From NCBI GenBank assembly GCA_023129115.1, contig JAGMCR010000011.1, forward strand, positions 43,909 through 107,908: a stretch of DNA of 64,000 nt, in the 5' to 3' direction. Positions within the stretch are counted from its first letter, which is position 1; every line of letters begins with the position of its first letter. Source of the DNA: Candidatus Iainarchaeum sp. (GTDB lineage: Archaea; B1Sed10-29; WALL01). Positions 13,841 to 41,977 of this stretch are shown here, in pieces. The notes under the pieces are model-generated. The model was given only the letters and a program-made list of their open reading frames with translations, ran no database searches and had not been told where the DNA came from. A program made the position numbers and the translations under genes.

Positions 13841-13847
13841 TTGGCTA

Positions 13848-14817: not shown

Positions 14818-14824
14818 ATTAGCA

Positions 14825-14989: not shown

Positions 14990-15091
14990 CCAGGGAAGGG
15001 GGACACCCCCCAGCCCTGGACGTTGACCTACGGCCAACGTCAACCTGCACGGGATACCTGACCCCCGCAAGCTCGCTTGCGCTCGCAGTTT

Positions 15092-16251: not shown

Positions 16252-16336
16252 TTAATTTGTCGCAGGGCCTGGGCTGTTGGGTAAAGCTTGTCTGCTTAAG
16301 TAAAGCATTTAAACACCCCCTTCTTTGTTTTTGGTT

Positions 16337-16897: not shown

Positions 16898-17523
16898 TGA
16901 AGAAAGGCCTCGGGATGTGGATAATGAGCAAGCTCGTGCTCATGATTTTCCTATTCGCCTTGGTCCTTGTCCTCACCTTGTTCATGCGGGTATACAGCGA
17001 CAAGATAATTTCTGACACTGCGCAGAGCTACACTCTCCTGTGGAGCGAGGTCGCGAACGGCGCATTGCTTTACCGGTCGAGCAGCGACAGCGTGTTCCTC
17101 CCCGACATAATGCGGGTGCGCGAGGCGAACCGCGAGTACACTGTGATGGTGCAGAAGGTCGGGAGCGAGCGCGCCGTGTTCTTCCTGGCGTGGTACAAGC
17201 ACGAGACCGCGGAAGACATGCGTGGGGAGGGGTTCGCGGCGGCGACGGCAATCAACATGCCGTCGGCGGTGGCTGGCGACGGCAAAATCCTGTTGTTCGA
17301 GGGCCTGGAGGGCGAGGTCGGGTTCGAGGAGCCGCTGGACCCCAGCGTGCTGATGGTTCGGCCGTCCGAAAGGGTGGGCAGGGACACGACGCTTTTGTTC
17401 ACGCGGAAGGACGAGTACTTCTGCGTCGGCACGATAAAGGAGGGAGTGTCTGTCGAGCACTCGGTAAGCCTGTTCGGCGACTGCTGCCAGAAGGACTGGG
17501 ATGATGTTGATGGCTGCTACTAG
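16897..17523 (+). CDS. Pilin-like protein
   Basis: MKKG|LGMWIMSKLVLMIFLFALVLVL; start overlaps the upstream stop. Confidence 0.65.
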   Translation: MKKGLGMWIMSKLVLMIFLFALVLVLTLFMRVYSDKIISDTAQSYTLLWSEVANGALLYRSSSDSVFLPDIMRVREANREYTVMVQKVGSERAVFFLAWYKHETAEDMRGEGFAAATAINMPSAVAGDGKILLFEGLEGEVGFEEPLDPSVLMVRPSERVGRDTTLLFTRKDEYFCVGTIKEGVSVEHSVSLFGDCCQKDWDDVDGCY

Positions 17524-18016
17524 GGGCTACATCGGCCCGCTGGGCGACGACTTCCCCGCGATTTTCCCGATAGCCATGGGCCTTCTCCTTTTCTTTTCCG
17601 CCATCACGCTGACGTACGACTATTACAACACCAAGCACGACGCCGCGCTTTTGCTTGAGGCCAACACCGCACTGGCAAAAGCCGCGCGCGCCCAGCTCGT
17701 GTTCACGCAGGACTACTGGGACGAGGAGGGCGGCGTGTGCGACTTGATTGACAAGACCAAGGCGAACTACGGCGTGCGCGCCAAGGCCGAGCTACTGCAG
17801 TTCGAGCGGCTGGGCCCAACGAAATACGACTTCAACAAAATAAGGAAAATCGATGGCAAAACCCTGGGCGACAACCCGTGCGTTGACTACGAGGACGACG
17901 ACCGCAACCCATTGCCGTACGAGGGCGACTTCTTCATTTCCCTGACGTACCCAATCCTGCTGAAGTCTGGGAACGGCCAGGAGATAGCGACGCTGGTGGT
18001 GACGACGTGGATGTAA
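17510..18016 (+). CDS. Pilin-like protein
   Basis: TRG|YIGPLGDDFPAIFPIAMGLLLFF; C-terminal LVVTTW strand like other minor pilins. Confidence 0.6.
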   Translation: MAATRGYIGPLGDDFPAIFPIAMGLLLFFSAITLTYDYYNTKHDAALLLEANTALAKAARAQLVFTQDYWDEEGGVCDLIDKTKANYGVRAKAELLQFERLGPTKYDFNKIRKIDGKTLGDNPCVDYEDDDRNPLPYEGDFFISLTYPILLKSGNGQEIATLVVTTWM

Positions 18017-18576
18017 AGCGCGGCCAGGCAGTGGTCATCGACGGCCTGTTCTTCCTCATGATTTGCGGGTTTGCGGCGGCGACACTGTTGTGGGCGGGCT
18101 CTGTCTACGGCGACAAGAGCTTCGAGGCCTACCGCTACATTTACATGACGGACTACACAGGCGGCGCGATGGCTGTGCTGAGCAACCTCGACTACGAGTA
18201 CACGGTTTCAATCGGCGGCAGCTCCGCGGCCGTGAAGGCGGCGTGGCTCGACGAGCTCGGGTCGTACATGCTTGGCGAGTTCAACGAGACCGACGCGCGG
18301 TACAAGGTGATGCGTGGGCACTGGGATACGCTGTGCAGCCAGGCGCCTGCGCCGCTATTGCTCACTGTCTACTCTGAGTACGAGGGCACTGCCCGCGGCA
18401 CGCAGGAGGAGCCGCTCTACTTCGCGTGCGGCGAGGGAGACCGCAGCCTATTGAAGGCCCTCGAGGACGAGGACGGCGAGCTCAACATCTTCAAGTACCC
18501 GTACTATTCGTCGGACATTATGTCCAAGTCCTGCTCCACCCTGCGGTGCATAATGGACATAAAGATTTATTACTGA
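18007..18576 (+). CDS. Pilin-like protein
   Basis: KRG|QAVVIDGLFFLMICGFAAATLLW. Confidence 0.7.
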   Translation: MDVKRGQAVVIDGLFFLMICGFAAATLLWAGSVYGDKSFEAYRYIYMTDYTGGAMAVLSNLDYEYTVSIGGSSAAVKAAWLDELGSYMLGEFNETDARYKVMRGHWDTLCSQAPAPLLLTVYSEYEGTARGTQEEPLYFACGEGDRSLLKALEDEDGELNIFKYPYYSSDIMSKSCSTLRCIMDIKIYY

Positions 18577-26054: not shown

Positions 26055-26591
26055 CTATACCGACTTGGTGACGTAGGGGAATGCAAACAGGTTGTCCGCG
26101 ATGTGCAGCGGCGGCCTCGCGTCGTCGACCTTGAGGTTGCCGCTCTCGTCCACGTATTCCTCGTTGGCCGAGATGGCGACGACTTTGCCGATGACCATGA
26201 TGTGGTCCCCCGCCTTTTTCGAGAACTCTTCGTAGCACTCGATGTGCGCCACGCACTCCGAGAGCCTCGGCGGCCGCACCTTTTCGGATGGCTCGGTCTT
26301 GAGCTTGGCCTTGTCGATTTTGCTCTCGTTCGGGTCCCACTTGCCGCCCGCAATCCAGAGCTTGTCAAGGATTTTCTCGGTCGGGATGTTGATCACGAAC
26401 TCTTTCACGCGCGTCATGGCCCAGTACGAGTGCTTGTTCACGCCCACGCTCAGCATGATGAGCGGCGGGTCGAAAGAGACAGGCGCCACGAACGAGAACG
26501 GGGAGACGTCTGTGCGGCCCTTTTCATCGATTGTGGTGACTAGCACTGTTAGCTTAGGCGACATGAGCCTGTAATAGTCCTGCAGACGCAC
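26055..26591 (-). CDS. Flavin reductase-like (FMN-binding split barrel) protein
   Basis: VLVTT...SPFSFVAPVSFDPPLI, EFVINIP, AHIEC, GDHIMVIGKVV. Start reassigned to GTG 26591 (uncertain). Confidence 0.85.
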   Translation of the reverse strand: MRLQDYYRLMSPKLTVLVTTIDEKGRTDVSPFSFVAPVSFDPPLIMLSVGVNKHSYWAMTRVKEFVINIPTEKILDKLWIAGGKWDPNESKIDKAKLKTEPSEKVRPPRLSECVAHIECYEEFSKKAGDHIMVIGKVVAISANEEYVDESGNLKVDDARPPLHIADNLFAFPYVTKSV

Positions 26592-26657
26592 GTTCCTAAT
26601 TACCCGCCCAAAGTATAAAAGGCTTACTAGGGGCGGAATAGCAGTTGGGAGTGGCAA

Positions 26658-26782: not shown

Positions 26783-27547
26783 TCACCCGTACATCGGCGT
26801 CTTTTCCTCGGCTTCCTTGTACCTGAGCTTGCCGAGCTTGATTTGGCTGAGCATTTTCTTCATCTTGCCCTCGATTTCCTTGGCCTCGGTCAGGAGGTCA
26901 GCGGTCTTTATGTCGTAGCCGAGGAACTTCTCGAGCTTTTCCAATAGCTCTGCCGCTGCGCCGGGGTCGGGGTAGCCGTGCTCCGTCTCTATCAATAGGC
27001 TCATTGCCGGGAACTTGATGGCGTTGCACTTGGCCATGAGGATGCCGGACACGCCGGTGGTGACGCCCTCGGTGATTACCTTTACCTTCTGCTTCTCGAG
27101 GTCCTTGAGCATTGTGGGCGTGGACGCGATGCCGTAAATCTCGGACTCGACAGGGGGCTCGTTGCTCTTCTGCCGCGACGTCATTCCAGCGAGCGAAATT
27201 ATCCTTTTTATCTTGTTGTCCTTGGCCCACTTGATGATTTGGTCCGCGATGTCGTACACTGTGCTGGCCGGCACCACGAATTCCGAGAACAATAGCACTG
27301 TCTTGTGCTGGTGGTCCACGTAAATCCTGGCTGGGAACAGGGGCTCGCCCTTGTGGATGGACGCCATGGGCGGGAAATGCCTTGACATCAGGTAGCCCAT
27401 CTGCTTGGTCTTCTGCCTCTCTGCAAGGTAGCCCACAGCAATCGTGCCAATCAGTCCGATGCCTGGGAACCCCTCCACGAGGGTGTATCCCTCGACGTTT
27501 TCAGGGTTGGTTGTTACTATCTCCACGAGGAGCTCTTTTTCTGCCAT
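26783..27547 (-). CDS. Proteasome assembly chaperone (PAC2 family)
   Basis: LVEGFPGIGLIGTIA, FPPMASIHKG, ITEGVTTGVSGIL, YPDPGAAA; C-terminal PMYG. Confidence 0.88.
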   Translation of the reverse strand: MAEKELLVEIVTTNPENVEGYTLVEGFPGIGLIGTIAVGYLAERQKTKQMGYLMSRHFPPMASIHKGEPLFPARIYVDHQHKTVLLFSEFVVPASTVYDIADQIIKWAKDNKIKRIISLAGMTSRQKSNEPPVESEIYGIASTPTMLKDLEKQKVKVITEGVTTGVSGILMAKCNAIKFPAMSLLIETEHGYPDPGAAAELLEKLEKFLGYDIKTADLLTEAKEIEGKMKKMLSQIKLGKLRYKEAEEKTPMYG

Positions 27548-29071: not shown

Positions 29072-29929
29072 TCACACGAACATCACTGCCCTGGCAAGCA
29101 TGAACAAAGCCATTGACAGCGGCACGAGCACCGCGATGTAGACAATCGCCTTCTCTGTGCTGTTCTCCTGGTATGCCACGAACAGCGACGCGAGAACCGC
29201 GTACTCCACTATATAGAACTGGCTCCCCAACAATGCGCTCGCCAGCATCTCCCCGGGGTTGGCGGGCCCTAGCCCCATGTCGGCGAGGCCCACAAAGTCG
29301 AGCGAGCCCACCATGGACACCAATGCGCCGAGTATGAGTGGCACAATCACGCCCCCGGCGAGCAGGAGCGTGTACTTCTCTATGGCAGTGGTCGCGGCCT
29401 GCTCCCGCACGACTTCTGCCACGCCGCTGATTTCTTCTGCGGTCTCCCTGAGCGCGTCGCCCATGTTCGCGCCTGTCCTGTAGCCCTGCAGCACCAGGCC
29501 AACCGCCCGCTTCAGCAGCCGCGAGTCGTTGGAGTCAATCATTGCCTCGAGGGCCTCGTCCACGGGCACGCCGTTGGCCACCTGCATGTGCGCCTTCCCG
29601 AACTCCCGGGCCAGCGGGCTGTCGCCTTCCGACAATTCCTCGACAAGCGCCTCAATCGGCATGAGCGTGTTGGACGCAGCGCGGTAGAGCGCCTGCGGCA
29701 GCTCTTCCTCGATGAGGCCCTGCCGCCTCGCCCAGAAATAGGTCGGCACTGCGTAGGCGGCGGCAAGCGGCAAAAGCGCGAGGCCGCAGAACAAGCCGCC
29801 GCCGGCAAGGAACACTGCCACGAAAATCCCGCCGCTCGCCCACGCCGCGTGGCGCACCAGCTCGCCCGCGTCGCCCCACCCCAGGCCGCGGGCCGCCTTC
29901 TGCAGCTGTGCCATGGTCTTTTCCATCAT
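29072..29929 (-). CDS. T2SS-F/TadC-like membrane protein, system B
   Basis: IEEELPQALY...LAREF...GVPVDEAL...GANMGDALRETAE, plus TM helices. Confidence 0.85.
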   Translation of the reverse strand: MMEKTMAQLQKAARGLGWGDAGELVRHAAWASGGIFVAVFLAGGGLFCGLALLPLAAAYAVPTYFWARRQGLIEEELPQALYRAASNTLMPIEALVEELSEGDSPLAREFGKAHMQVANGVPVDEALEAMIDSNDSRLLKRAVGLVLQGYRTGANMGDALRETAEEISGVAEVVREQAATTAIEKYTLLLAGGVIVPLILGALVSMVGSLDFVGLADMGLGPANPGEMLASALLGSQFYIVEYAVLASLFVAYQENSTEKAIVYIAVLVPLSMALFMLARAVMFV

Positions 29930-30666
29930 GCGAAAAACGGCCTCTTCAGCTTTATGAACGCGAGTATCGCCAGGTCAATCGTTGGGAACGCGAGCACCGG
30001 TATCCAGAACGCGTCGCTGGGCGTGAGGCTAACGCTCATGAACGCCGAGCCAACGATTACGTACGCCTGGAACAGCGCCGGCAGGATGGCGGACACTGCT
30101 ATAAAGACGAGCGAGTACACCGCAAGCTTTCCAGAGTACTCGCGGAGCGCGGCCTTCTGCATCGCGGCGATTTCCTCGCTGAGCTTCTTCAGCGCTGATG
30201 CGCCGCCGCGCTTCGAGTAAATGCTGTTCAACTGCATCACTGCCTTCTGGAGCTGGCCCGAGTCCACCCTCGCCACCATGGAGTTAAGCGCCTGCGGCAC
30301 GGCCGCGCCGAACTCCACTTCCTTAAGTGCTATCCCCACGTGCCTCGCGAGCCCGGAGCCCTCGCAGCTCTGCTGCAGGGCCTCTTCGAACGGCAGGCCC
30401 ACTGCAATCAGCGTCGCCATGGAGCGGAGCGCGAGCGGCAGCTCGGCCTCGACCCTGCCGGCCAGCGACTTTTTCCTGTACCACGGGACCTTGTACACGG
30501 CGGCGAAGGAGAGCCCTGCAGCCACTGGCGCGGCCATGGGCCAGAACGCGACTGCCGCCACGAACGCCGCTGCCCCCGCCATCACGCAGTACTTAAGCCA
30601 CTCTTCTTTCGTGTTCCGCATCTCTGCCAGTTGCAGGTCGCGCTCAAGCCCCGTGAACAGCTTCAT
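29926..30666 (-). CDS. T2SS-F/TadB-like membrane protein, system B
   Basis: VEAELPLALRSMATLIAVGLPFEEAL, plus TM helices; ATGA-coupled to the downstream gene. Confidence 0.85.
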   Translation of the reverse strand: MKLFTGLERDLQLAEMRNTKEEWLKYCVMAGAAAFVAAVAFWPMAAPVAAGLSFAAVYKVPWYRKKSLAGRVEAELPLALRSMATLIAVGLPFEEALQQSCEGSGLARHVGIALKEVEFGAAVPQALNSMVARVDSGQLQKAVMQLNSIYSKRGGASALKKLSEEIAAMQKAALREYSGKLAVYSLVFIAVSAILPALFQAYVIVGSAFMSVSLTPSDAFWIPVLAFPTIDLAILAFIKLKRPFFA

Positions 30667-32308
30667 TCACTTCCTCCACCGCTTCTGCAAAGTCTGTTGG
30701 CGAGTTCGCGAGCATGCCCTCGCGCCTCTGCCACTCCTGCCCGAGCCCGCTGGCGTCCAGCGAGAACGCCTTCATGATTTTTTCTGACACTCCGCCACTC
30801 CCAACCTTTACAAGCGCGTCTTTCGCCGCGTCGTAGTCGAACAGCTTGTGCGGACGGGCTTGCCCGTTGTGGTGCACCTCGCTTATCTCCATCACCCTCC
30901 GCAGCTCCCGCGTCTCTTTTTTCTCTGGGTCGTACTTGTCCCACCTCTTCTGCACCACCAGCAGGTCAATCGTCGGCAGGTCGTGGTCGCTTATGCCCAA
31001 GGCCTTGAGCCGGTTGATTGCTTCCCTGCCGCTCAGGGCGTGGAACGTCGCGACGCTTCCCTTGCCCTGGCCCGCGAGCATGGTGTTCATCAATGCCTTG
31101 GCCTCTTCCCCAGTGCGCACTTCGCCGACGATTATCCTGTCCGGCCGCATCCGCAGCGTGTCGCTCACGAGGTCGCCCATCCCAATCCCCAATTCCTCGT
31201 TGACGGTGAGCCGCACGCTGTGCTCGTGGGGAATGCTTATTTCGGGCGTCTCCTCCACGATAATCACCCGCTCGCCCAGGGGGATGAACGCGCTCAGGCA
31301 GTTCAGCGTCGTGGTCTTCCCGGACCCGGTCGACCCGGCAACAAGAATGTTCAGGTCGCACTGCATGGCCATCCACAGGAACGACATTGCCTCTGCGGTT
31401 ATCGTCCTGTTGTCAATCAAGTGCCTCGGGCTCAATGGCTTCTCAGTAAATTTCCTTATTGTCAGGCACGGCTGCTTCGTCACCGGCGGAATCGCGGCGT
31501 GCAGCCTCGACCCGTTGGGCAGGCACGCGTTTATCCTCGGCTTCTGCAGGGTAATCCTCCTCCCCAGTGAGCGCGCGATTCTGTTTATCACGCCCACGAT
31601 TTTCTTTTCGTCGAGGAACATCACGTCGGCCTCGAGCCAGCCCACGCCCCGCCTGTACACGCGTATCGGCTCGCCCACGCCGTTGACCGTAATCTCTTCC
31701 AGCGACTCGTCCGCCAGCATGGGCTCGAGCACAGAGAACCCGTGGACCTCGTAGTGGATGAGCCGCAGCAATTCTTCGCGCTGCGAGTCCTCAAGCACCA
31801 GCCCTTTTCCCTCGCAGTACTCCTCGAACACTTCCTCGACGTCTGCCTCGCCTTCCTTGGCGAGCTCGCGGAATGCCTTGACCACTGCCTCGATGGCCCT
31901 GGCCTCCTGGCAGCCAGGCGAATAAATCCCTGCCTCGTAGTTGCCGCCTGCTTTTTCCCAGCCGAGTATGCGCCGCGTTTCCTCGACTTCTTCTTCGCTG
32001 GCCTCGAGCCGGAGCCCCTTCACGCAGACCTTTATGCACTTCGGGTCCCCGCCGCACAAGTCGCACTTCCTGGCGTAGCCGTCCACGTAAATCGCGTTGT
32101 ACGGGCACGACAGCGCGCACAGCCCGCACCCGTCGCACTTCTCCGGGTCGACAGCCCACACCCCGGTCGCCACTTCGTAAAACGCCCCCTTCGGGCAGGC
32201 CTTGACGCACTCTGGCTCAAGGCAGTGCCTGCACTCGAAGTTTGCCTTGTGCGGGCACGCCTCGACGCACGCGTTGCAGTGGCTACACTCATCTATAACT
32301 AACCTCAT
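30644..32308 (-). CDS. TadA/CpaF-like ATPase with N-terminal 4x[4Fe-4S]-type ferredoxin domain
   Basis: Four Cys quartets in the first 100 aa, then LEEITVNG, LPNGSRLHA, TIRKF, GSTGSGKTT, VEETPEI, LRMRPDRIIVGEVR, ATFHA in one frame. Confidence 0.9.
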   Translation of the reverse strand: MRLVIDECSHCNACVEACPHKANFECRHCLEPECVKACPKGAFYEVATGVWAVDPEKCDGCGLCALSCPYNAIYVDGYARKCDLCGGDPKCIKVCVKGLRLEASEEEVEETRRILGWEKAGGNYEAGIYSPGCQEARAIEAVVKAFRELAKEGEADVEEVFEEYCEGKGLVLEDSQREELLRLIHYEVHGFSVLEPMLADESLEEITVNGVGEPIRVYRRGVGWLEADVMFLDEKKIVGVINRIARSLGRRITLQKPRINACLPNGSRLHAAIPPVTKQPCLTIRKFTEKPLSPRHLIDNRTITAEAMSFLWMAMQCDLNILVAGSTGSGKTTTLNCLSAFIPLGERVIIVEETPEISIPHEHSVRLTVNEELGIGMGDLVSDTLRMRPDRIIVGEVRTGEEAKALMNTMLAGQGKGSVATFHALSGREAINRLKALGISDHDLPTIDLLVVQKRWDKYDPEKKETRELRRVMEISEVHHNGQARPHKLFDYDAAKDALVKVGSGGVSEKIMKAFSLDASGLGQEWQRREGMLANSPTDFAEAVEEVNEAVHGA

Positions 32309-32378
32309 TCTCCCATCTCCCCATAGCATCATTCTTAAGGCGAAAGTCATATATATAACTTACATATACAAAACATAT

Positions 32379-32696
32379 ATGGCTTCAAGGGCTGTCCTCG
32401 TGAATTTTCCTGAAAAAGTCTTGTCCGGGCTTGACTCTCTTGTCGAGGAAGGGGTTTTCGACAACCGGAGCGAGGCGATTAGGGAGGCCACGAGAAAAAT
32501 AATCATGGAATACCGTGGCATTGCCGGCCCGGCGGAAAAGCCTTCTGTCGAGCTAGTGCGGGAAGTCAGGGCCAAGATGTGGCGCGATGCCTTGAGGCAG
32601 GCAAAGGGCGACGAGCAGAAGGCAATGGATTTAATCGCAAGAAAGGCAAAGAAGGCCGCGGACAAGTTTTGGCCTAATATTCGCCGGGCTCGATGA
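32379..32696 (+). CDS. CopG/RHH-family antitoxin-like protein
   Basis: VLVNFPEKVLSGLDSLVEEGVFDNRSEAIREA. Start reassigned to ATG 32379. Confidence 0.8.
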   Translation: MASRAVLVNFPEKVLSGLDSLVEEGVFDNRSEAIREATRKIIMEYRGIAGPAEKPSVELVREVRAKMWRDALRQAKGDEQKAMDLIARKAKKAADKFWPNIRRAR

Positions 32697-33099
32697 CTGC
32701 CACACCGATTAGGTCGCCGACTTCCTTGTGTATTTTTTCTCCGCTGACGAAGAAGCCCACGCTGCTTTTTTTGGCGAGCAGGAAATGCGCCGCGTCATTG
32801 ACACCGATTCTTTCCCCGATTTCGCCAGCTATTTTTCTGTTCAACTCAACTGCTTTCTTCAAGATGGCACCGGTTGTTTCAATGCGCTCGACCAGAAGGC
32901 CCGTGTCCGCAATGAATGATTTCATGAGCGGAACCAGGTATGGGTAAACATTTTCCATTTCCTGGATGACTAAGTCTGATAGCAACACAGTGTCGCCGTT
33001 GCCCACCGCTTTTTCGAACATCCTTTCAGCGAAGTAGGTCGGCATTCCCTCTTCCTTGAATAAGCTAATCCATACATTGGTGTCTAGGTAAAGCCTCAT
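32674..33099 (-). CDS. PIN-domain (VapC-like) ribonuclease
   Basis: LYLDTNVWIS, SDLVIQEM, NDAAHFLLA, FVSGEK. Convergent with the RHH gene, 23-nt overlap. Confidence 0.85.
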   Translation of the reverse strand: MRLYLDTNVWISLFKEEGMPTYFAERMFEKAVGNGDTVLLSDLVIQEMENVYPYLVPLMKSFIADTGLLVERIETTGAILKKAVELNRKIAGEIGERIGVNDAAHFLLAKKSSVGFFVSGEKIHKEVGDLIGVAVIEPGEY

Positions 33100-33120
33100 T
33101 CTTCCTCTCCCCTCTCGCTT

Positions 33121-33432
33121 TCATGGCGTTATTTCAATTGACTTCCCCTTGATTTTCAGCGTCACTTTTTCTCCCTGCTTCAGCCCGAGTGCCTGTTCCA
33201 TCACTTTGGGTATCCGCACTATTAGGTTGCTCTTTATCCGCCCGAGCTTTGCGTGGAACTTCTGGTGCTTTAGCTTGTTGGCTACGAGTATCCTTTCCGC
33301 CTGCAGTGGATCCAGATACTCCTCGCCGCAATTATCGCACTTCCAGCCATCAAGGACGTATCTTTTGAACTTTAGCTTTGTCGGCTTCGCGACTTTCCCA
33401 CAGAGGCATCCAAGCCCTTCCTTCTTTTTCAT
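33121..33432 (-). CDS. Zinc-ribbon (MqsA/YgiT-like) + AbrB/MazE-like antitoxin
   Basis: CLCG...WKCDNCGEEY, followed by SNLIVRIPKVMEQALGLKQGEKVTL. Confidence 0.7.
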   Translation of the reverse strand: MKKKEGLGCLCGKVAKPTKLKFKRYVLDGWKCDNCGEEYLDPLQAERILVANKLKHQKFHAKLGRIKSNLIVRIPKVMEQALGLKQGEKVTLKIKGKSIEITP

Positions 33433-33740
33433 TTAAACTTCCCCGCGTGTATTATCAGCCAGGCTTCTTTTTTCAGGAAACTGTTGTAGCACCTCGCCAC
33501 CACAATTTTTATCGTCTTGTTCCCTTTCTTCACGCACTTTTCCAGCACGTTTTTCTTTCTCTTGCTCCTTGCGCAGTCATACCCTTCTTCCAGCACCTCA
33601 ATCGCGTCGTGCACGGTGAAGTGCAGTCGGTCCAGCTCGCGTGCGGCTGCCCGGGTTGGGACAACACGCAGCCCCCTCCACTTGGGGGCAACAACCTCTA
33701 ACATATGTTCTTGACATATGTTATTAATATATGTTTCCAT
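33429..33740 (-). CDS. Putative DUF4258/BrnT-like toxin
   Basis: PTRAAARELDRLHFTVHDAIEVLEEG...IKIVV...LIIHAG; ATGA overlap with the antitoxin. Start may be 33704. Confidence 0.5.
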   Translation of the reverse strand: METYINNICQEHMLEVVAPKWRGLRVVPTRAAARELDRLHFTVHDAIEVLEEGYDCARSKRKKNVLEKCVKKGNKTIKIVVARCYNSFLKKEAWLIIHAGKFK

Positions 33741-33790
33741 AACTCTCTCCCCAGACAGTTATTCTCGCTTGAGCTATTTATTCCTTGCAG

Positions 33791-34105
33791 TCACGCGCGG
33801 ATTTTGGCCTTCTGCTTTGCATGCTCTTCCAGAAATTCCATGTCCACCGCTGTCGCAAGCTCGTCCAGCTTGACCGCGATGGCAGATTCCTTGTTGAACT
33901 GGTACATCTGCGCCCTTCCCTCTGTCCTGGTCTTTTTGGCGATTCCGCCCTCGACTAATTCGGGCATGACCCTCTGCAGCGTGCGGAAGCTCACGCCCGT
34001 GGCTCCGCCAATGTCCTTTAGAGAGTAGTCCCATTCCGAGTGGACCCTAAGAAAATCCAGCACCTTTGGGATTGGCCTGTCACCGAACACGTGCACTAAC
34101 CCCAT
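33791..34105 (-). CDS. Winged-helix DNA-binding protein
   Basis: KVLDFL...DYSLKDIGGATGVSFRTL...LVEGGIAKKTRTEGRAQMYQFN. Confidence 0.75.
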   Translation of the reverse strand: MGLVHVFGDRPIPKVLDFLRVHSEWDYSLKDIGGATGVSFRTLQRVMPELVEGGIAKKTRTEGRAQMYQFNKESAIAVKLDELATAVDMEFLEEHAKQKAKIRA

Positions 34106-34233
34106 GCTTTTTGCTGTGTTTCCCCAGCCTTATAAATTTAACTATTTTAACTAAATAACGCCAAATCTGTCATAGCATCTCGGCAATCCATACGCCTTTG
34201 TCTTTAAAACCTTTTGTTGAATACTGCTGGTGG

Positions 34234-34470
34234 ATGGACTACGAACAGTTTGTCCTCAAAAAGCTCTTGGACAAGCGCTATATCGGAGAAAAGCAAACAC
34301 TCATCGAGAACATTCCAAAAAACGTCCCGAAAAAAGACCAAAAGAAGGTTAGGAAAGCAGTAAAATCGCTTGTGCGCAAAGGCGTGCTCTTAACGAAAAA
34401 GAAGCACTATGGCGTGCACGTGTCGCTCAACCCACGCATGCTAAAGCAAATCAAGGAAGCCATTGAGTAA
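34234..34470 (+). CDS. Small basic winged-helix-like protein
   Basis: MDYEQFVLKKL...VRKAVKSLVRKGVLL...VSLNP; divergent from the wHTH gene. Confidence 0.55.
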   Translation: MDYEQFVLKKLLDKRYIGEKQTLIENIPKNVPKKDQKKVRKAVKSLVRKGVLLTKKKHYGVHVSLNPRMLKQIKEAIE

Positions 34471-34779
34471 TCACTCTAGTTTTACTTTCATTCCCAACTT
34501 GTATTTGGCAGCGCCAGCCCTCATCTCCACAACGTACTTGGCCGGCTTCTTCGGGACAATGTTCAGGCGCCACGGCTTCACGTTCTTGACGACGTCAACA
34601 ACCCGCCTCTCGCTGTCCAAGAAAACCAGGTCAATCGGGAACCGCATGAACAGCGTGTGTATCGCCGCCATCCACCGTGACTCCACTGCAAGAACGAGCG
34701 CCATTGGCCTCCCTAGCTTTTTCCGGAACATCAGCCCCATGAACTTCTGCCAGGGCGTGGTTGCCCACTCTACTTTCAT
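34471..34779 (-). CDS. DUF192 family protein
   Basis: ATTPWQKFMGLMFR, IHTLFMRFPIDLVFLD, AKYVVEM. Start reassigned to ATG 34779 because the longer ORF runs into the IS end. Confidence 0.85.
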   Translation of the reverse strand: MKVEWATTPWQKFMGLMFRKKLGRPMALVLAVESRWMAAIHTLFMRFPIDLVFLDSERRVVDVVKNVKPWRLNIVPKKPAKYVVEMRAGAAKYKLGMKVKLE

Positions 34780-34793
34780 GATACTCGCTTCAA

Positions 34794-36003
34794 GGAAAAC
34801 TTCCCCCTCCAGAAGGTTAGGGGTTGAGTTCCCCCCTTTCTTCCTCGGCAACCTTTAGCCGAAGAGCGTTTAAATACTTTTCACTTAACGTGAAATCATG
34901 CAAAGGGCAATCACTACGTTTTGTGAGTATGATGCTGACCTAATTAAAACAATGGAATTGTTCAACAAGGCCTGCCAAGAAGTAATCAACGTTGGCTGGG
35001 AGATAAAGGAATACAACAAAATGGAACTCCATAAGCTCACTTATCGTGCTATTCGCAGGGATTTTCCTTTGCTCCAGAGCAGCTTGGTTGAGGCTGCGAG
35101 GGATGTTGCTTCTGACATGCTTAAAAAAACCAAGTTCGCCAAGAAAGCATCTGCGCGGCAGCGTTAGGCTCAACCTGCGGACGTTCAAACCCTTCCTCAA
35201 AAGCAGCTATGTTTCTGTAAGCACTGTTTCCGGAAGGAAGAAAATTCCCATTAAAATTCCTAATTATTTTAATAAATACAAAAAGTGGCAGATCAAAGCA
35301 GCTACTCTCAAGTACAAAAATGGGGGTCTATCCTTTGTGTTGATTGCCGAGAAAGAAGCTTCAGAGCCTAAAAAGCCTGAAACCGTGATGGGGGTTGACC
35401 TCGGCGTGAACAACATCGCGGTATGCTCGAATAACACGTTTTTCAATTCCAAGCACCTAAAAAAGGTCAAGGGAAGATACCAATATCTACGCAGAACGCT
35501 TCAGTCCATTGGCACTCGCTCCGCGAAGAGAAAGCTCAAGAAGTTGAGTGGGCGAGAAAGACGGTTCGTGACTGACTTGAACCACTGTATCAGCAAAGAA
35601 TTGGTTTCCCTGCCTTTTGATTGCATTGCCTTCGAAAAACTCTGCATCAAGAAAAAGAAGGGCAATGGGAAGCGTTTCAACAAAAAACTTGGTGGATGGA
35701 GCTACGCACAACTCCAAGCATTCACTAGCTACAAAGCAGAAGAACTCGGCAAAACCATTGTTTTCGTGAATCCCAGACACACAAGTCAAGCATGTTCTGT
35801 TTGTGGCCATAGGCACAAGTCCAACAGAAACGGCGCTGTCTTCCGCTGCAAGTCCTGCAGCTTCGAGCTACACAGTGACTTAAACGCTTCCCGAAACATC
35901 GCCAGCCTCGGCAAGTCCGAGGTTGGTAGGCTGCCCAGTCAACCAGCCAAACGTAACCTCGCAAGAGAGTTACAAGCCCCTATTCCATTAGGGTGCAGTT
36001 GAC
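34794..36003 (+). mobile_element. IS200/IS605-family (IS1341-like, tnpB-only) element 1
   Basis: Left-end hairpin region; right end AAGCCCC...GGGTGCAGTTGAC; no tnpA. Removing this interval restores a clean stop for the adjacent gene. Ends are inferred. Confidence 0.7.
34898..36002 (+). pseudogene. tnpB: TnpB nuclease split by a +1 frameshift near 35123-35160
   Basis: N-terminal part in 34898-35167. RuvC motifs GVDLGV, IAFEKL, HSDLNASRNI and the Zn finger CSVCG/CKSC are in a different frame. Confidence 0.8.
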
Positions 36004-39000
36004 GCTTTCTCGACCGTCATGGCAGTTATTTGCCACTTGGAGTCAGTAGCCATCCATACCTCGTGCAGCACCTTGGCCTGGTCGATGTCCACCATGGAGT
36101 AGTGCACGTACCTGTCCCCCGGCGGCAGCGCAGGTGCGTCCTCTGGCGCGTAGGGCGTGATGAACGTGCCCCCAGTGGACTTGTGCGTCGCCTCTATCCA
36201 GTCCTCGGAGCGGGCCGTACCCGAGACGCGGACCTCGTCGAGCATGCCATTGAAGAACTGGCCCTCGCCCGCGGTGGCGTGGATTTGCTTCCCGATGTAC
36301 AGCGGGTGTGTGCTTATCGGAAGCGTTGACGCGCTGTACGTCCCCGAGCCAGCCGGCGCCCCGTTGATGTAGAACGCGTACGCGCCGTTGCTGAACGTAA
36401 CTGCCATGTGCGCCCATGTGTTGGTCGGGAACAGTGCTGTGGAGTCTGTGAAGTCATAGCCGCCAAGGTACGAGAAGAGCCTGAGCTTGGCCGACGACGG
36501 GAACTGTACGCCGTAGTTAAGCATCCTGTCGCCGCTTGAGTGCGGGTTGCCCTTCGTGATTATGGAGCGGTAGCCTGCCACGTCTCTGGTATAGACCCAC
36601 GCCGACACCGTAAGTGTGTCCGGGACATTCAAGGTCGGGCCAGCCCCGCAGTCAATGGACCCACTGCTCCCGTCGAAGTTGTCTGCGCCGCCAACCACGC
36701 CACTGGTGGCTGTTACCCCGCCGCCCCGCGTGCCCGTGTTGGTGTTGCCTGTCGAGTCCGGCGCATCCGCCGCGCCCTCGCCGAGGTGCCACACCCCCCT
36801 GTAGCCATTGCCCCACACAGCCGCCGGGTCTTCGGCGCTGGTGTCGGGGCAGTCGTAGTACGCCCAGATGTGGTCGCTCGTGCTGCCGGCCGGTATGTGC
36901 GGGACCTTGACCCACACGAACGAGTCGCCGCCCTGCACCCACTCCTCAATTTCCTTGGGCAGGGGCGTTGTCCCATCGCTGTCGTAGAACCTTATGTCGT
37001 CCGGGCCGGTGAGCGAGTACTCGATATTGCTCGGCGTGAGCTTCACCATGACCGGGAAGCCCACGAGGTCTTCTGCGGACGCGCTGTTGTCGAACTCGAG
37101 CCTCACGCGCCTGTTGCAGCCTCCGCACGAGCCCTGGAACGTGCTCTCGACCGCCGCGCCAAACACGCCCCACTGCTGTGGCGCGTAGGCATAACTGTCG
37201 AACGTGCCGTCGGTGTAGAACACTGTGAGGGTGTTGAGTATCGTGGCGCTCGCGGTCGCGGAGTCGGTGAGCCCTTCCTGGTCGTACGCGGTTATGCTGC
37301 AGTCCCAATCCTCGCCAGCAGCAGTATCCGCTGCAGTGGGCGCGAGGCTCGTGTAGCAAGCCTTCCCGTGCGTGCACAGTATCTCGTTTACGTCCCACGC
37401 GGGCTCGTGCCCGCCGTTCCGGTACCACGTCACATTCGCCTTGAGCACGTCGCCTTCGTCGGCGTCCGTAATCACCCACGTGCAGTTCAGGTCCTCAAGG
37501 AACGTCGGGTGCAGTGGGATTGTCCGCTGGCCGCTGATTACAGGGAAATTGGGGAACGTGTCGCACACCTCGCTGGACCAGTCGGTCCCGATTCCATTGG
37601 CGTTCTGTGCCTTTGCCTCGTAGCAAATCTGCGTTGGGCTCGCGCTAGTGTCGGTGTAGAGCGTTGAGGTTATCCAGCCGCTGTCGGTCCCGTTGCCGTA
37701 CGTGTTGTTGGCGTAGTACTGTGTGCCACCGGGGTTCCCGTTGGCTATGATTGTGACTTCGCACCTGTCGGGGCTGCGGCGGCAATCGACCACAAGCCCC
37801 GGGACTGCGGCATAGGTATAGTCACACACTGCAGTTGTGGTCCACGCGGTCTCTTGCCCCCACTTGTCCGTGGCCTTGGCGCGGTAGCAGTACTGCGTGT
37901 TCGGCGCCAATCCCATGTCAACGAACACATTGCTGGCCTGCCACGTGAAGTTGCTCCCGCCGCCGGTGGTCTCCCACAGGCTGTAGTTCACGCCGCTCGG
38001 GTCGGTCGACACCGTCGCCGTCACGGTTATCTGCGACTTGGAATTGACGACCACCGACGCAATCGTCGTGGGGTCCGGGCTCGGCGGCCCAACGTCAATG
38101 TTTATCTGGAAGTGCGCCGTGTTCCCCCACTTGCCCATGTGGTTCTTGGGGCGCACGTGGAACCACCACGTGGCCTCGGAAATGTTGGAGTAGCTTGCGT
38201 TCGTCGCAGTCGTCACATTGTCCGTCCCCTCCTGCGGCGTGTACGTTGAGTTTGCGTTCAGCGCGTGGATGTACTTCTCTATCCCAGAGCACGAGAATGG
38301 CTTTGTCCAGTTGAACTGCGGGTCCTGGCTCGCGTACGCCTGCGAGCTGTTCGGGTGCGTCGACGACGAAACCACGGGCGCGCCCGGGCTAGCCGTGTCA
38401 ATCTTCGTGATTGCCCCGGAGTTGACCAGCCCGCTGCCGCGGCCGGCAATGTCGCTCGCCTCGTGCCTGAACCTGTACGCGCTGCAGCTCGACCCCACGT
38501 AGTTGAAGTCCGTGCCGCTCGTGTCCGCCGTGGTGTACCCCCCCCACGCGCCAAGCACGTCCTCGTCGCCTATCGCGGCGCTGTCGACTTCGGTGACAGA
38601 GCCGGCATAGCCGCTCGGGTCGACGCCCCAGTCGCCCGCGGCCTGCGTGACCGCAATCGTAGTGGTGTCCTGGAACCCGTCGAAGTGGCCCACTGTCGCG
38701 AACGGGTCCACCAGGTCCAGGTTTATCGAGTCCTGTATGAGTATGGAGGGATTGCCCGCGCGGTCGTTGCACACAATCCTCGCGTAGCGCTCGCCCTCGT
38801 ACGGGCGCGGCGGCACAGCCGGCCACGACGGCGGCCACGGCCCGGCCGGGAGGGCCGAGCTCCAGCTCTTCCACAGCAGGTGCGTGTCGTACGCATTCCC
38901 GTTCCCGACAATCGTGTCCCACTCAACAGGGCCCGTGGTGAACGCGGCATCGGTGGGCTCAAGCTGCTCGCACTCGTGGATGCGGCACTCCGGCGGGCAG

Positions 39001-39272
39001 CTTGGTGGGTCTCCTTCCACGCAGTCCACACAATTGATGTCCAGGTCCGCGCAGTCGCTTATCCAGCACTGGCCCAGCCCCGCGACATCGATTTCCGCGG
39101 CGTACGGCTCGTATATCCCGCTGAAGTCGACCGTCACCAGGCCCCCATCGGCGCCGGCGTACAGCGCCTCGTAGTTGGCGCTTATCACGCCTGCCGGCGC
39201 GGTAAAGTCCACTATCAATGCCGCAAACGCACCTCCCATCAGCAGTAACACCACGAGTAATGCCTTGTTCAT
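35988..39272 (-). CDS. Secreted modular adhesin-like protein (Fn3/Ig-like + DUF2341-like + LamG)
   Basis: Signal peptide MNKALLVVLLLMGGAFA; Fn3-like GLAPNTQYCYRAKA; DIRFYDSDG...WVKVP; GVWHL; WAHMAVTF; FNGMLDEVRVS. No C-terminal TM. Confidence 0.8.
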   Translation of the reverse strand: MNKALLVVLLLMGGAFAALIVDFTAPAGVISANYEALYAGADGGLVTVDFSGIYEPYAAEIDVAGLGQCWISDCADLDINCVDCVEGDPPSCPPECRIHECEQLEPTDAAFTTGPVEWDTIVGNGNAYDTHLLWKSWSSALPAGPWPPSWPAVPPRPYEGERYARIVCNDRAGNPSILIQDSINLDLVDPFATVGHFDGFQDTTTIAVTQAAGDWGVDPSGYAGSVTEVDSAAIGDEDVLGAWGGYTTADTSGTDFNYVGSSCSAYRFRHEASDIAGRGSGLVNSGAITKIDTASPGAPVVSSSTHPNSSQAYASQDPQFNWTKPFSCSGIEKYIHALNANSTYTPQEGTDNVTTATNASYSNISEATWWFHVRPKNHMGKWGNTAHFQINIDVGPPSPDPTTIASVVVNSKSQITVTATVSTDPSGVNYSLWETTGGGSNFTWQASNVFVDMGLAPNTQYCYRAKATDKWGQETAWTTTAVCDYTYAAVPGLVVDCRRSPDRCEVTIIANGNPGGTQYYANNTYGNGTDSGWITSTLYTDTSASPTQICYEAKAQNANGIGTDWSSEVCDTFPNFPVISGQRTIPLHPTFLEDLNCTWVITDADEGDVLKANVTWYRNGGHEPAWDVNEILCTHGKACYTSLAPTAADTAAGEDWDCSITAYDQEGLTDSATASATILNTLTVFYTDGTFDSYAYAPQQWGVFGAAVESTFQGSCGGCNRRVRLEFDNSASAEDLVGFPVMVKLTPSNIEYSLTGPDDIRFYDSDGTTPLPKEIEEWVQGGDSFVWVKVPHIPAGSTSDHIWAYYDCPDTSAEDPAAVWGNGYRGVWHLGEGAADAPDSTGNTNTGTRGGGVTATSGVVGGADNFDGSSGSIDCGAGPTLNVPDTLTVSAWVYTRDVAGYRSIITKGNPHSSGDRMLNYGVQFPSSAKLRLFSYLGGYDFTDSTALFPTNTWAHMAVTFSNGAYAFYINGAPAGSGTYSASTLPISTHPLYIGKQIHATAGEGQFFNGMLDEVRVSGTARSEDWIEATHKSTGGTFITPYAPEDAPALPPGDRYVHYSMVDIDQAKVLHEVWMATDSKWQITAMTVEKASTAP

Positions 39273-39835
39273 CTCATGCACCCCAATTCGCTTGCGCAGA
39301 CCAGTATGTTATCTATCCTGATTACGGGAATGTCCCCGCCCCCATTGTCCTTACAATAAAGGTTGAGGTTGTAGCTCCCGTCGAAAAAGTAATTCGTGAG
39401 CGTGCAGCTCACCTTGGTCTTGGTCGCCCCAGGCTCCTCGACCACGCAGTCCCACTTGGACGCGTCCGTCACCCCCGAGGCGCATTCCGCCACGCCGTTC
39501 TCCCAGTAAACGTCGAACCCAATCGTGGGCCGGGTATTGTTGTAGAACGTCTTGTTGCTGCAGAAGAGCCCGCCCGGCGTTTCCTCGCACTGCACGGGCA
39601 TGCAGTCGCCGTAGCAATTCTCCAGTGTCTCTCCCTCGTCGCAGTACTTGTCGTTGTTGCAGACCGGCACTGCAGTGGGCGAGGGCGTTGGAGTGGGTGT
39701 TGGCACTATGGGTGTTGGGGAGGGGGCCGGAGGCTCTTCCCGCCCCCCCATGATGATGGCTGCCGCTATGACCACGGCGGCTATTCCCGCCAGCAGTGCC
39801 AGCTTTTCCTTTGTCTCCAACTCTTTTTGCCTCAC
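39269..39835 (-). CDS. Small membrane-anchored Cys-rich protein (paralog of 41420-41947)
   Basis: GTG start overlapping the upstream TGA; TM LALLAGIAAVVIAAAII; Pro/Thr linker; CNNDKYCDEGETLENCYGDC; DASKWDCVV. Confidence 0.75.
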   Translation of the reverse strand: MRQKELETKEKLALLAGIAAVVIAAAIIMGGREEPPAPSPTPIVPTPTPTPSPTAVPVCNNDKYCDEGETLENCYGDCMPVQCEETPGGLFCSNKTFYNNTRPTIGFDVYWENGVAECASGVTDASKWDCVVEEPGATKTKVSCTLTNYFFDGSYNLNLYCKDNGGGDIPVIRIDNILVCASELGCMR

Positions 39836-41415
39836 GTTGTCGATGTCGCCCAGTTGCCCCAGTTTCCTGCGGTGTCCTGCGCGCGCACTCTCCAGACCCA
39901 CTTGCCCTGGCAGAGGACCACGCCAATCATTCCGCTTGGCCCCCCGTACATTCCTACGGGGCAGTCGTGGGTCGCGTAGTTGTTCGTGTCGTAGATGCTT
40001 GTCGGTGCGGACACGTACTGGTCCACGCCGTCGTTGTCCGTGCCTACTGGGTCTGTGACCCATCCGGTGTCCCTCGCGACCTGGAGCTGGTACTGGGCCA
40101 GGCCCGCGGCCTCGCCTATGCCGCCCTGGTCGCCGTAGTCCGTGGACACGCCCCAGTCGAACGTCGGCAGCCCGGTCGCGTCATACGACACTTCAATGAT
40201 TGATGGCGCGGTTGGGTCGGTCTTGTCTATCTTGAACTCCACTGGCGACGAGTACTTGGTGTTGCCTGCGTCGTCCTTTGCCGCTGCGCACACCCACGCG
40301 TGCGCGGTGATGGGCATGCTCGCCCCGACACTGTAGTCCGCGTACGTGGTTGAGCACACAGGCTCGTTTTCCTGGGCATATACCTTAAACGCGTACGTCC
40401 CGGTGTCGCAGCCGCAGTTGTCAGTGCAGCTTCCTATGGTTGCGGTCGCGTCAATGTTCTGCCAGCTGCCCGGCGCCCCGCCCACTGTCAGGGTCGACGG
40501 CGCGGTCTTGTCGTGCCAGACCTCGGTGCCCGGGTCGTGTGCGTACGCCCACTCGTCCAGCGGCCTTGAGGCGGCGTCCCTCGCGCGGTACCTGAACTTG
40601 TACCACTTGCACTCGGCGGGGAACGTGTACACGCAGTCGGCGCACGTGTCTGTGCATGCCGCCACTTCTGTCCAGCCGTCATACGACCCGCCGTCAATCT
40701 TTTCGTCGACTGCGACCTTGCAGTCGGCGGCCACTCCGCTCGGCGAAACGCCCCAGTCTGCTTCGGTGGTCGAGATTGTGTGGGTCGTGCTGGTCGTTGT
40801 GCCGCCCGCGTAGCTGATTGACTGTGTCGGGTCAATCATGTCCAGGTTTATCGAGTCCTGGAGCTGTGACGCTATGTTGCCTGCCTTGTCCACGCACGTG
40901 ACCCTGACGACGCGCTCGCCCTCCATCGGGCACGGCGGGGCAACGTCTGGCCAGGACGGCGGCCACATAGTCCCGGCGTCGCAGTACCCCGGGATTTCTG
41001 CGTTCGTCCTGAACATCAGGTGCGTTATGTACCCCTCGGTGTCAATGCCCGCCCAGTTGTGTATGGCGCCGAACCTCGCGTCTTCTGGCGCGATGGTCTC
41101 GCACTGCACGTAGTCACCTGGATATGACAAGAGCGCGCAGTCCTGTATGTAGCACCCGTCCAGCCCGGCCACTTCTATCTGGCCGGCGTAGGCGTCGGTT
41201 ATCCCCGTAAAGTCCACCTTGATAGCGCCCAGTACGGGGCTGTCTGTGCCAACCGTGGGGTTGCAGTTCGCAGCATCGATACAGCCGCTGGTTGTCACCT
41301 CTGTGAGTGTGGATGCGTCCAGCCCGACAGGCACGCCAATCGGTATGCTCCAGTCCACTGTAAGGTACGCAGATGCCATCGTGAGCATCAATAGAGTGAG
41401 AATTACTTGCTTCAT
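39832..41415 (-). CDS. Secreted Cys-rich protein (527 aa), mosaic of its neighbours
   Basis: Signal peptide. The N-half resembles the 1094 aa protein and the C-half resembles the end of the 3596 aa protein. Confidence 0.8.
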   Translation of the reverse strand: MKQVILTLLMLTMASAYLTVDWSIPIGVPVGLDASTLTEVTTSGCIDAANCNPTVGTDSPVLGAIKVDFTGITDAYAGQIEVAGLDGCYIQDCALLSYPGDYVQCETIAPEDARFGAIHNWAGIDTEGYITHLMFRTNAEIPGYCDAGTMWPPSWPDVAPPCPMEGERVVRVTCVDKAGNIASQLQDSINLDMIDPTQSISYAGGTTTSTTHTISTTEADWGVSPSGVAADCKVAVDEKIDGGSYDGWTEVAACTDTCADCVYTFPAECKWYKFRYRARDAASRPLDEWAYAHDPGTEVWHDKTAPSTLTVGGAPGSWQNIDATATIGSCTDNCGCDTGTYAFKVYAQENEPVCSTTYADYSVGASMPITAHAWVCAAAKDDAGNTKYSSPVEFKIDKTDPTAPSIIEVSYDATGLPTFDWGVSTDYGDQGGIGEAAGLAQYQLQVARDTGWVTDPVGTDNDGVDQYVSAPTSIYDTNNYATHDCPVGMYGGPSGMIGVVLCQGKWVWRVRAQDTAGNWGNWATSTT

Positions 41416-41419
41416 TCAA

Positions 41420-41947
41420 TCACCCCTCGTACCACTGGCCGCAGCCGGTGTCGCTCGCGCAGACAAATATCTTGTCGACGGTCTCCCTCGGCAGCCTGTC
41501 GCCGTTGTTGTCCGTGCAGTGCAGGTTCAGCATGTAGGTGCCGTCGTAGAAGTAATTCTGCAGCGTGCACTCCACGTTTGTCTCGGTCGCGCCCGGCTCT
41601 TTCACTACGCAGTCCCACTTGGACGCGTCGGTCAGCCCCGATGAGCATGCCTGTACCCCGGTGGGGCTGGACATCCTGACTATTATGCTTGGTGTGGTGT
41701 CCGTGTAGCTCTCGGACCCGGGCGCCCTCTCTGCGGACAGCGCTCCGGTTATTATGCAGTCGGCGGGGCATGATGCCTTGGTCTCGCCAGGCTCGCACAC
41801 TCCGTTGTTGTTGCACGTGCCTCCTGGCGTTACTGGCGCCCGGGGTGTCTCCCCTGGCTGCATGATAAAAAACAAAGCAATCAATATCACTGCAACCAAG
41901 AGCGCCGCTATGTAGAGCGGCTGGATTTCGGTTTTTTTCTTTGCCAT
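41420..41947 (-). CDS. Small membrane-anchored Cys-rich protein
   Basis: TM LYIAALLVAVILIALFFIM; CNNNGVCEPGETKASCPADC; DASKWDCVVKEPGAT. Confidence 0.8.
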   Translation of the reverse strand: MAKKKTEIQPLYIAALLVAVILIALFFIMQPGETPRAPVTPGGTCNNNGVCEPGETKASCPADCIITGALSAERAPGSESYTDTTPSIIVRMSSPTGVQACSSGLTDASKWDCVVKEPGATETNVECTLQNYFYDGTYMLNLHCTDNNGDRLPRETVDKIFVCASDTGCGQWYEG

Positions 41948-41977
41948 TTTTTTTGCCTCAGTTTAAGTTGGTTAATG

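Follow-up and report, generated by a model that had tools for sequence, protein, structure and literature searches.

A ferredoxin domain fused to a pilus motor ATPase probably ties the motor of a small-genome DPANN-type archaeon to the redox state of the cell

The 64,000-nucleotide stretch of Candidatus Iainarchaeum sp. DNA analysed here (contig JAGMCR010000011.1, positions 43,909 to 107,908; the whole of this stretch is hereafter referred to as the window) encodes, on its minus strand, a secretion-superfamily ATPase with a ferredoxin domain fused in frame to its N-terminus. This protein, which we call Fd-ATPase, is encoded together with two platform proteins and is the motor of an Epd/Tad-like type IV filament module whose platform is encoded by two separate genes, of the kind termed ‘system 1’ in a recent census of archaeal type IV filaments (PLoS Genet 2026, PMC13705601). 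The fusion probably ties the pilus motor of this small-genome DPANN-type archaeon to the redox state of the cell. We have high confidence in the anatomy and evolution of Fd-ATPase as read below; to the more specific proposal that the ferredoxin domain acts as a redox- or O2-responsive input to the motor we would assign a probability of roughly 0.45.

The Fd-ATPase gene (30644..32308, minus strand) encodes 554 amino acids from a Met codon at 32308, within an uninterrupted open reading frame (ORF) of 568 residues (30644..32350) that extends to 32350. There are no stops between the ferredoxin and ATPase parts, which thus belong to a single frame. We place the likely start at 32308 because homologues have matching N-termini (MRL...), because a GGAG/GGGAG stretch at 32310-32320 lies immediately before this ATG and because a TTATATAT run, a possible TATA box for the gene, lies 43-50 nt upstream of it (32351..32358, minus strand). 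From its N-terminus, the protein comprises a four-motif ferredoxin domain (32009..32308; residues 1-100, with 16 Cys residues encoded within 32024-32287), an acidic linker with a conserved LGW motif (31919..32008), close to which unfused orthologues begin, and an ATPase body made up of N- and C-terminal domains (30647..31918), with the Walker A sequence GSTGSGKTT at 31313-31336. In the homologue alignment G116 of the linker is invariant and W117 is found in at least 90% of rows. The first platform gene (29926..30666, minus strand) is TadB-like and overlaps the ATPase gene by 23 bases; the second (29072..29929, minus strand) is TadC-like and overlaps the first by 4 bases. Pfam assigns a single T2SSF domain to each.

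An initial annotation of this DNA, made from the letters alone, had described a ferredoxin fused in frame to a complete TadA-like ATPase and followed by coupled TadB/TadC genes, and had listed CSHCNACVEAC, CRHCLEPECVKAC, CDGCGLCALSC and CDLCGGDPKCIKVC as its Cys motifs. All of this is borne out: one ORF carries both Pfam Fer4 and T2SSE, the junction between them is conserved in relatives, the first 95 residues have the 16-Cys content described and the two overlapping single-T2SSF genes follow. The annotation had also likened the Cys pattern to that of DmsB/NrfC/HydN/CooF-type subunits, and here Pfam, sequence matches and predicted fold agree in pointing to the NrfC/PsrB/HycB/FdnH subunits.

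Evidence for this relationship comes from several sources. Within residues 39-113 of the 568-residue frame Pfam recognises Fer4_7 (1.1e-11), Fer4 (3.1e-11) and Fer4_11 (6.9e-10), with Fer4_9 also matching in the N-terminus; PF27713 is listed on many of the database homologues and gave no match in our Pfam scans. The four Cys groups lie within residues 8-95 (554-residue numbering) and take the forms CxxCxxCxxxC(P), CxxCx4CxxxCP, CxxCxxCxxxCP and CxxCxnCxxxC. Sequence matches of the N-terminal 123 residues in the PDB include the MvhB polyferredoxin, the AOR Fe–S subunit (8c0z_C), WOR5, NrfC/PsrB (2vpw_B), FdnH and HycB. When the domain was modelled separately (pLDDT 86.7) and searched with Foldseek, the four-cluster subunits 8c0z_C, 9mqx_E, 7qv7, 1kqf_B and 2vpw_B were recovered at TMq 0.62-0.71, whereas two-cluster ferredoxins reached only about 0.3. 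When the N-terminal 235 residues were searched against 1.84 billion representatives, around 25 of the best 150 matches were fused proteins of 430-620 residues; most of the others were free ferredoxins of 120-220 residues, with 40-56% identity over motifs II-IV. By sequence and by model, the N-terminal domain is a shortened CooF/HycB/NrfC-type module, with a predicted cross-ligated fold of two nested 2x[4Fe-4S] units.

Whether the 16 Cys residues are ligands can be judged from how they are kept and lost. All 16 are invariant in 33 homologues of 41-85% identity, though these 33 were picked for possessing the four motifs. In an unselected tally of 181 family members aligned to a profile of the domain (database proteins and locus ORFs pooled, with some duplicates) 114 retain all 16. 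Such conservation is not a matter of chance. A further 15 deviate solely at one position of motif II, where spacing varies (CxC forms), around 21 lack the domain and a few others are cut at the N-terminus. Two kinds of variant are particularly informative. In the ten type A proteins exactly the first three Cys residues of group I and the fourth of group IV are gone; in the three type B proteins, which belong to one family of the window’s phylum, exactly the first three of group II and the fourth of group III are gone. In the canonical NarH/FdnH-type wiring, clusters are cross-ligated, group I with group IV and group II with group III. Types A and B each lose the ligand set of one cluster in this wiring, which argues that the remaining Cys residues bind clusters: two lineages appear each to have dropped one whole predicted cluster with the other three ligand sets intact. 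These patterns are the best in silico evidence for cluster binding in the standard topology, and we infer that the domain binds four [4Fe-4S] clusters with canonical cross-ligated wiring. Its non-Cys residues are conserved to about the same degree as those of the ATPase N-terminal domain (majority fraction 0.51 versus 0.56). That complete ligand sets and non-ligand residues are so strictly kept suggests that the domain is in use wherever it is present.

The remainder of the protein has the features expected of a motor. Pfam T2SSE (PF00437) matches residues 206-485 of the 568-residue frame at 2.6e-36 (125.5 bits against a cut-off of 24.9) and phmmer relates the ATPase half to afGspE (2oap, 8.1e-51), CpaF (8rkd, 4.1e-48) and FlaI (4ii7, 1.5e-37). 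Across the 33 homologues, G325, T327, S329, G330, K331 and T332 of Walker A, the acidic pair E352 and E353 and H423 of the His box are invariant. Fd-ATPase is accordingly predicted to be a hexameric ATPase of the secretion superfamily, with Walker A, the Walker B/catalytic Glu pair and the His box all present. An AlphaFold2 (AF2) model of the full protein, built from an alignment of the 33 sequences, has a mean pLDDT of 89.3 and a pTM of 0.71, and displays the two-domain fold of the afGspE/FlaI/CpaF type; Foldseek E-values for it range from 7.7e-35 to 1e-30 over afGspE, CpaF and FlaI, with 2oap_2 (E 7.7e-35, TMt 0.72) and 8rkd_A (TMt 0.73) among the matches. Of the six or seven T2SSE ATPases in the window’s genome, this is the only one to bear a ferredoxin domain. 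The platform arrangement typical of Epd/Tad-like systems, two single-T2SSF genes beside the ATPase gene, is found in the window and in most relatives. In the census, system 1 is the Epd-like pilus of Methanococcales, Thermococcales and DPANN; it has two platform genes and, in the Nanobdellati (DPANN), the ATPase and platform genes are adjacent with the pilins scattered, whilst the N-terminal domains of the ATPases are described as variable (PMC13705601).

The fusion is not confined to one assembly: relatives in the window’s own phylum and in two other DPANN phyla carry it. The 120 best database homologues share 39-85% identity and come from several independent sources, with organism labels that include Candidatus Diapherotrites, Micrarchaeota and Iainarchaeum. 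In the window’s GTDB phylum the N-terminal 235 residues find a match in 29 of 31 genomes, mostly with a single copy in each; the two in which none was found have completeness values of 61% and 78%. The fused frame is clearly full-length in 22 of the 31. In another seven it runs into a contig end, has diverged, contains stops (G028) or may be unfused (G010). In G028 (C83:3008-3711) a TGA and a TAG fall between the ferredoxin and ATPase parts, as might be seen in a pseudogene or a split gene, or might arise through errors in sequencing. A second DPANN phylum, to which a genome titled Iainarchaeum belongs, has the fused form in at least 51 of 215 genomes, counted as a ferredoxin part inside a frame of at least 440 residues among the best 150 of 200 matches; in a third (containing a genome titled Micrarchaeota) it is found in at least 10 of 251 sampled genomes. 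Most other matches in these two phyla begin near query residue 110-155 in frames of around 425-540 residues, and are thus orthologues without the domain. A search with a Walker-A-type pattern returned 79 loci, encoding bacterial CpaF and archaeal T2SSE relatives, all of which match only query residues 115 and beyond; five DPANN/archaeal genomes reached through these loci lacked the fused form, which appeared on wider sampling of their phyla. An artefact of assembly or gene calling can for practical purposes be dismissed, since the identical in-frame join is clear and full-length in 22 of the 31 genomes, recurs in the two further phyla and is present in over 100 independently sourced database proteins.

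To follow the history of the domain, a quick IQ-TREE analysis was made of the last 420 residues of 57 orthologues and six paralogues. The ATPase tree groups the orthologues by the three phyla, within two of which the fused and unfused forms are intermixed; the best tree needs nine changes in the presence of the domain, of which well-supported branches force at least three. A tree of the ferredoxin domain itself recovers the same three phylum groups with weak support. Fused and unfused forms alike keep a common gene block (DUF192–ATPase–platform–PAC2, seen in 36 loci of the two other phyla). From this interleaving and this common block, the domain looks like an old accessory that has been lost repeatedly, and the simplest reading of the sequences is one old fusion, inherited vertically and followed by repeated loss, partial at least twice and complete many times. 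Sequence comparison places the domain outside the core motor, as an accessory, since the same orthogroup persists without it in many relatives.

A domain that can disappear whilst its module persists is more readily seen as regulatory than as a core component, and the reading we favour is that it makes the motor responsive to redox state or O2. The N-terminal face of FlaI and CpaF hexamers is membrane-proximal in structures, and the ferredoxin domain would sit at this face of the Fd-ATPase hexamer. Its redox state could be set by a ferredoxin pool reduced by POR and an IOR-like enzyme or, alternatively, O2 might destroy its clusters. The state of the domain would in turn alter ATPase activity or coupling to the platform, and the deployment of pili or adhesins would then track the redox or energy state of the cell.

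The window’s genome (1.25 Mb, 88.6% complete, 1445 ORFs) appears to provide the pool that such a mechanism would draw upon. Only six ORFs contain clostridial ferredoxin motifs: Fd-ATPase, the IOR-like enzyme, the delta subunit of a four-subunit POR, a 62-residue ferredoxin whose gene adjoins that of a geranylgeranyl reductase, ABCE1 and a MinD/ParA-Fer4 protein. POR, the IOR-like enzyme and the 62-residue ferredoxin thus point to the existence of a ferredoxin pool. Despite the presence of several Fe–S proteins, the SufBD core protein was not found in the assembled 88.6% of the genome, which does not imply that it is absent from the organism.

Several points weigh against a redox or O2 input. 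Four clusters exceed what a sensor needs. The link with POR is weak: POR_N turns up in all 20 genomes that have the fused form versus 12 of the 16 that have the unfused one, but a naive Fisher p of 0.03 gives way to a sign test p of 0.5 over the three supported independent pairs, and with POR in 32 of the 36 genomes overall, 20 out of 20 is unremarkable. The co-occurrence is a hint at most. COX1 was detected in none of the 36 genomes, so that these offer no contrast with which to link loss of the domain to aerobic life. Finally, the flavin-reductase-like gene that lies downstream of the module in the window (26055..26657, minus strand; PF01613, 7.7e-26; single copy in the genome) would make a tempting electron donor, but the linkage is seen solely in the window’s phylum, in 17 of 20 loci; no flavin-reductase gene lies near the module in any of the 36 loci of the two other phyla, fused or not, and we therefore reject it as a general dedicated redox partner.

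The main rival to a redox or O2 input is a structural role of the ABCE1 type, in which the clusters serve only to form a rigid N-terminal body that docks the motor to the platform, to DUF192 or to some other partner or, in a variant of the same idea, a body that is moved by the ATPase cycle with no redox signal involved. Precedents are provided by the clusters of ABCE1/Rli1 and by the Zn-tetracysteine motif of GspE/PilB: Fe–S domains without a known redox role do exist on NTPases, and the genome encodes an ABCE1 of its own (Fer4_RLI, Fer4 and ABC_tran). That the ferredoxin domain is conserved like the N-terminal domain of the motor (0.51 versus 0.56), next to which it is confidently predicted to lie, would suit a docking body, as would the persistence of a variant without the group II/III cluster, which implies that an unbroken electron path is not required. 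It would be odd, however, for an essential strut to be missing from so many orthologues whose module and gene neighbours are otherwise the same, and the nearest relatives of the domain in both sequence and fold are electron carriers rather than structural Fe–S modules. A purely structural role therefore seems to us doubtful, though well short of far-fetched.

Electron transfer might instead be the function itself, with a hexamer ring of up to 24 clusters passing or storing electrons, for example in exchange between ferredoxin and the neighbouring flavin-reductase-like protein, or on the way to the filament or to a host; the initial annotation had raised the coupling of electron flow to a filament. 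The closest folds to the domain are indeed the wire-type subunits of WOR5, AOR, HDCR, PsrB and FdnH, and those of AOR and HDCR assemble into filaments that conduct electrons. The downstream flavin-reductase-like gene, kept in 17 of 20 loci of the window’s phylum, also speaks for this reading, and neither [FeFe] hydrogenase nor RnfD/Rnf was found in the 88.6% complete genome. Against this, there is a match to the large subunit of [NiFe] hydrogenase, an ordinary electron sink, and the flavin-reductase linkage is missing from 36 of 36 loci in the other two phyla. Not one of the 1445 ORFs has more than a single CxxCH motif; the platform proteins, with one or two Cys residues, show no cofactor motif. 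Type B variants, moreover, have lost the cluster ligated by groups II and III, which we take, from the cluster order of Fdh-N, to lie inside the chain; if so, its loss speaks against an obligatory end-to-end wire. The filament-coupling proposal thus finds no support, and we consider electron transfer an unlikely function for the domain.

A more ambitious version of the redox input, which we rate as slightly more improbable still, would make the ring of up to 24 clusters a redox-operated clutch or direction switch, with POR-reduced ferredoxin deciding between extension, retraction and adhesin release by a single motor. Were it true, it would supply retraction control for these PilT-less archaea, tie host attachment directly to the energy state of the symbiont and perhaps account for the dependence of the Sulfolobus Aap pilus on AapX, an Fe–S cluster protein discussed below.

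The genes that surround Fd-ATPase are themselves well conserved. In the window’s phylum (20 loci) the genes run from DUF192 through Fd-ATPase, TadB-like, TadC-like and PAC2 genes, and in some loci a further small gene, to the flavin-reductase-like gene, with PAC2 downstream in 19 of 20 loci and DUF192 adjacent in 15 of 20. In the 36 loci of the two other phyla, several of which stop at contig ends, DUF192 is nearby in 25, a platform gene lies beside the ATPase gene in 29 and PAC2 is downstream in 23. In the window the DUF192 gene lies at 34471..34851 (minus strand; PF02643, 7.6e-20) and the PAC2-family gene at 26783..27547 (minus strand; PF09754, 1.1e-45). We know of no role for either family in type IV filament systems. 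Both were considered as partners specific to the ferredoxin domain and rejected, as both accompany the unfused orthologues too. One of the two other phyla shows a departure from the two-gene platform: in loci L159-L168 and L179-L186 a single platform gene of 510-590 residues stands in place of two, and the one that was scanned (L166:9755-11464, 569 residues) contains two T2SSF stretches. In that phylum genes resembling geranylgeranyl reductase and cis-prenyltransferase are found just before DUF192, so part of the synteny may be housekeeping.

The window itself differs from its relatives by two insertions. Between DUF192 and the ATPase gene is a block of around 2.1 kb (32360..34470), outside the module and absent at this place in relatives of the window’s phylum, that holds toxin–antitoxin-type genes and small ORFs: a PIN gene (32674-33099) and a MazE-like gene (33121-33432), both identified by Pfam, and a weak RHH-like match (32202-32696, plus strand). 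The second is an IS605 OrfB/TnpB-like gene (35046-36002, plus strand) just upstream of DUF192.

Directly upstream of this gene set, many loci of the window’s phylum have a second, domain-free ATPase with two platform genes of its own, along with genes for KGQFF-type N-termini and a surface protein of 800-2500 residues. The minus strand of the window carries the same elements, followed by DUF192. There, the second T2SSE ATPase (58732-62019, minus strand; 1095 residues) bears an intein with a LAGLIDADG endonuclease domain; a weak, sub-threshold PilB3_C-like match is seen at its C-terminus. Its T2SSF genes lie at 56499-57446 and 55286-56494 and a gene for a KGQFY-type N-terminus at 53223-54473 (all minus strand), whilst the region between the two motor modules (35988-52930, minus strand) encodes surface proteins of 3650 residues (FG-GAP/LamG) and 1097 residues (DUF2341/LamG). 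These observations bear on the initial annotation’s statement that the module has no pilin of its own. Locally this stands, there being none at 29072-32350; in relatives, however, the module lies directly behind a pilus locus of the type the annotation called ‘system C’, with KGQFF-type pilin-like genes.

Elsewhere in the window, ‘system A’ (9217-18576, plus strand) comprises an 820-residue T2SSE ATPase, a 733-residue protein with no Pfam match and at least four small RGQ-type genes, among which lies a SocA/Panacea antitoxin-domain gene (15380-15895); an exosortase-like fragment is found at 8831-9337. The RGQ-type N-termini encoded at 13830-18576 (plus strand) are class-III-like, and are, like the other pilin-like N-termini here, candidates picked out by sequence pattern. 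For prepilin peptidase, the genome contains two Peptidase_A24 matches above cut-off, on contigs C6 and C13.

Why might such a fusion matter? DPANN archaea live by attaching to hosts. To our knowledge their pili, like those of other archaea, would have to switch or retract without a PilT. If motor activity depends on the built-in ferredoxin, attachment would be linked to the redox or energy state of the cell. The family also comes with its own natural controls, in the shape of four-cluster, three-cluster and domain-free orthologues in the same gene context.

The architecture is already visible in automatic database annotations, where homologues carry source names such as ‘Flp pilus assembly CpaF family ATPase/ferredoxin’; the novelty lies in its function. 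The initial annotation knew of no characterised example of the fusion, and we found no paper describing one in a full-text search of the literature, the scope of which did not extend to subscription journals and unindexed papers. In the text of Makarova et al. 2016 (PMC4858521) none of the terms ‘ferredoxin’, ‘4Fe-4S’, ‘Fe-S’ or ‘DPANN’ occurs. The main text of the archaeal filament census contains no instance of ‘ferredoxin’ and three of ‘Fe-S’, all concerning AapX, and leaves the DUF192 and PAC2 neighbours unmentioned; the readable part of its supplements contains neither ‘ferredoxin’ nor ‘4Fe-4S’ (PMC13705601).

Set beside known systems, Fd-ATPase combines familiar parts in an unfamiliar way. 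It shares superfamily, fold and catalytic motifs with afGspE (PDB 2oap), CpaF/TadA (8rkd, 8rjf, 9e24) and FlaI (4ii7, 4ihq) and, like TadB/TadC systems, is followed by two separate platform genes, but has around 100 extra N-terminal residues with 16 Cys where the solved structures have no Fe–S domain. Fe–S clusters are not known from any motor studied so far, whether of type IV pili, archaella, Tad systems or type II secretion. With archaeal system 1, as described in the census, Fd-ATPase has in common the ATPase and two platform genes (PMC13705601). The ferredoxin domain resembles the four-cluster subunits (NrfC/PsrB 2vpw_B, HycB 7z0s_B, HDCR HycB3/4 7qv7, FdnH 1kqf_B, AOR/WOR5 8c0z_C and 6x1o_B; Fer4_11) in the order of its Cys groups and in predicted fold, but is shorter, at around 95 residues with just seven separating group I from group II, and it is joined to a motor ATPase and lacks a catalytic oxidoreductase partner. 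No molybdopterin, hydrogenase or similar gene was found in the conserved block across the 56 loci and, because of this and of the fusion to an ATPase, the domain falls outside the functional class of that family, namely service to oxidoreductases, whilst having its fold.

Two further proteins invite comparison. ABCE1/Rli1 likewise places an N-terminal ferredoxin-type Fe–S domain on an ATP-driven machine, but its ATPase is of the twin ABC class, it has two clusters and its Fer4_RLI motif is distinct, making it an analogy and not a homologue. The other is AapX (arCOG07320) of the Sulfolobus Aap pilus, which is described in the census as an Fe–S cluster protein without known function, separate from the ATPase, around 530 residues long and membrane-anchored, although one supplementary table calls it a pilin-family protein (PMC13705601). 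By locus tag its gene (saci2316) adjoins that of the ATPase AapE (saci2317). These annotations conflict, and the likeness of AapX to the Fd-ATPase domain is one of description; even so, the Fd-ATPase family may give a handle on AapX, a protein needed for the Sulfolobus Aap pilus.

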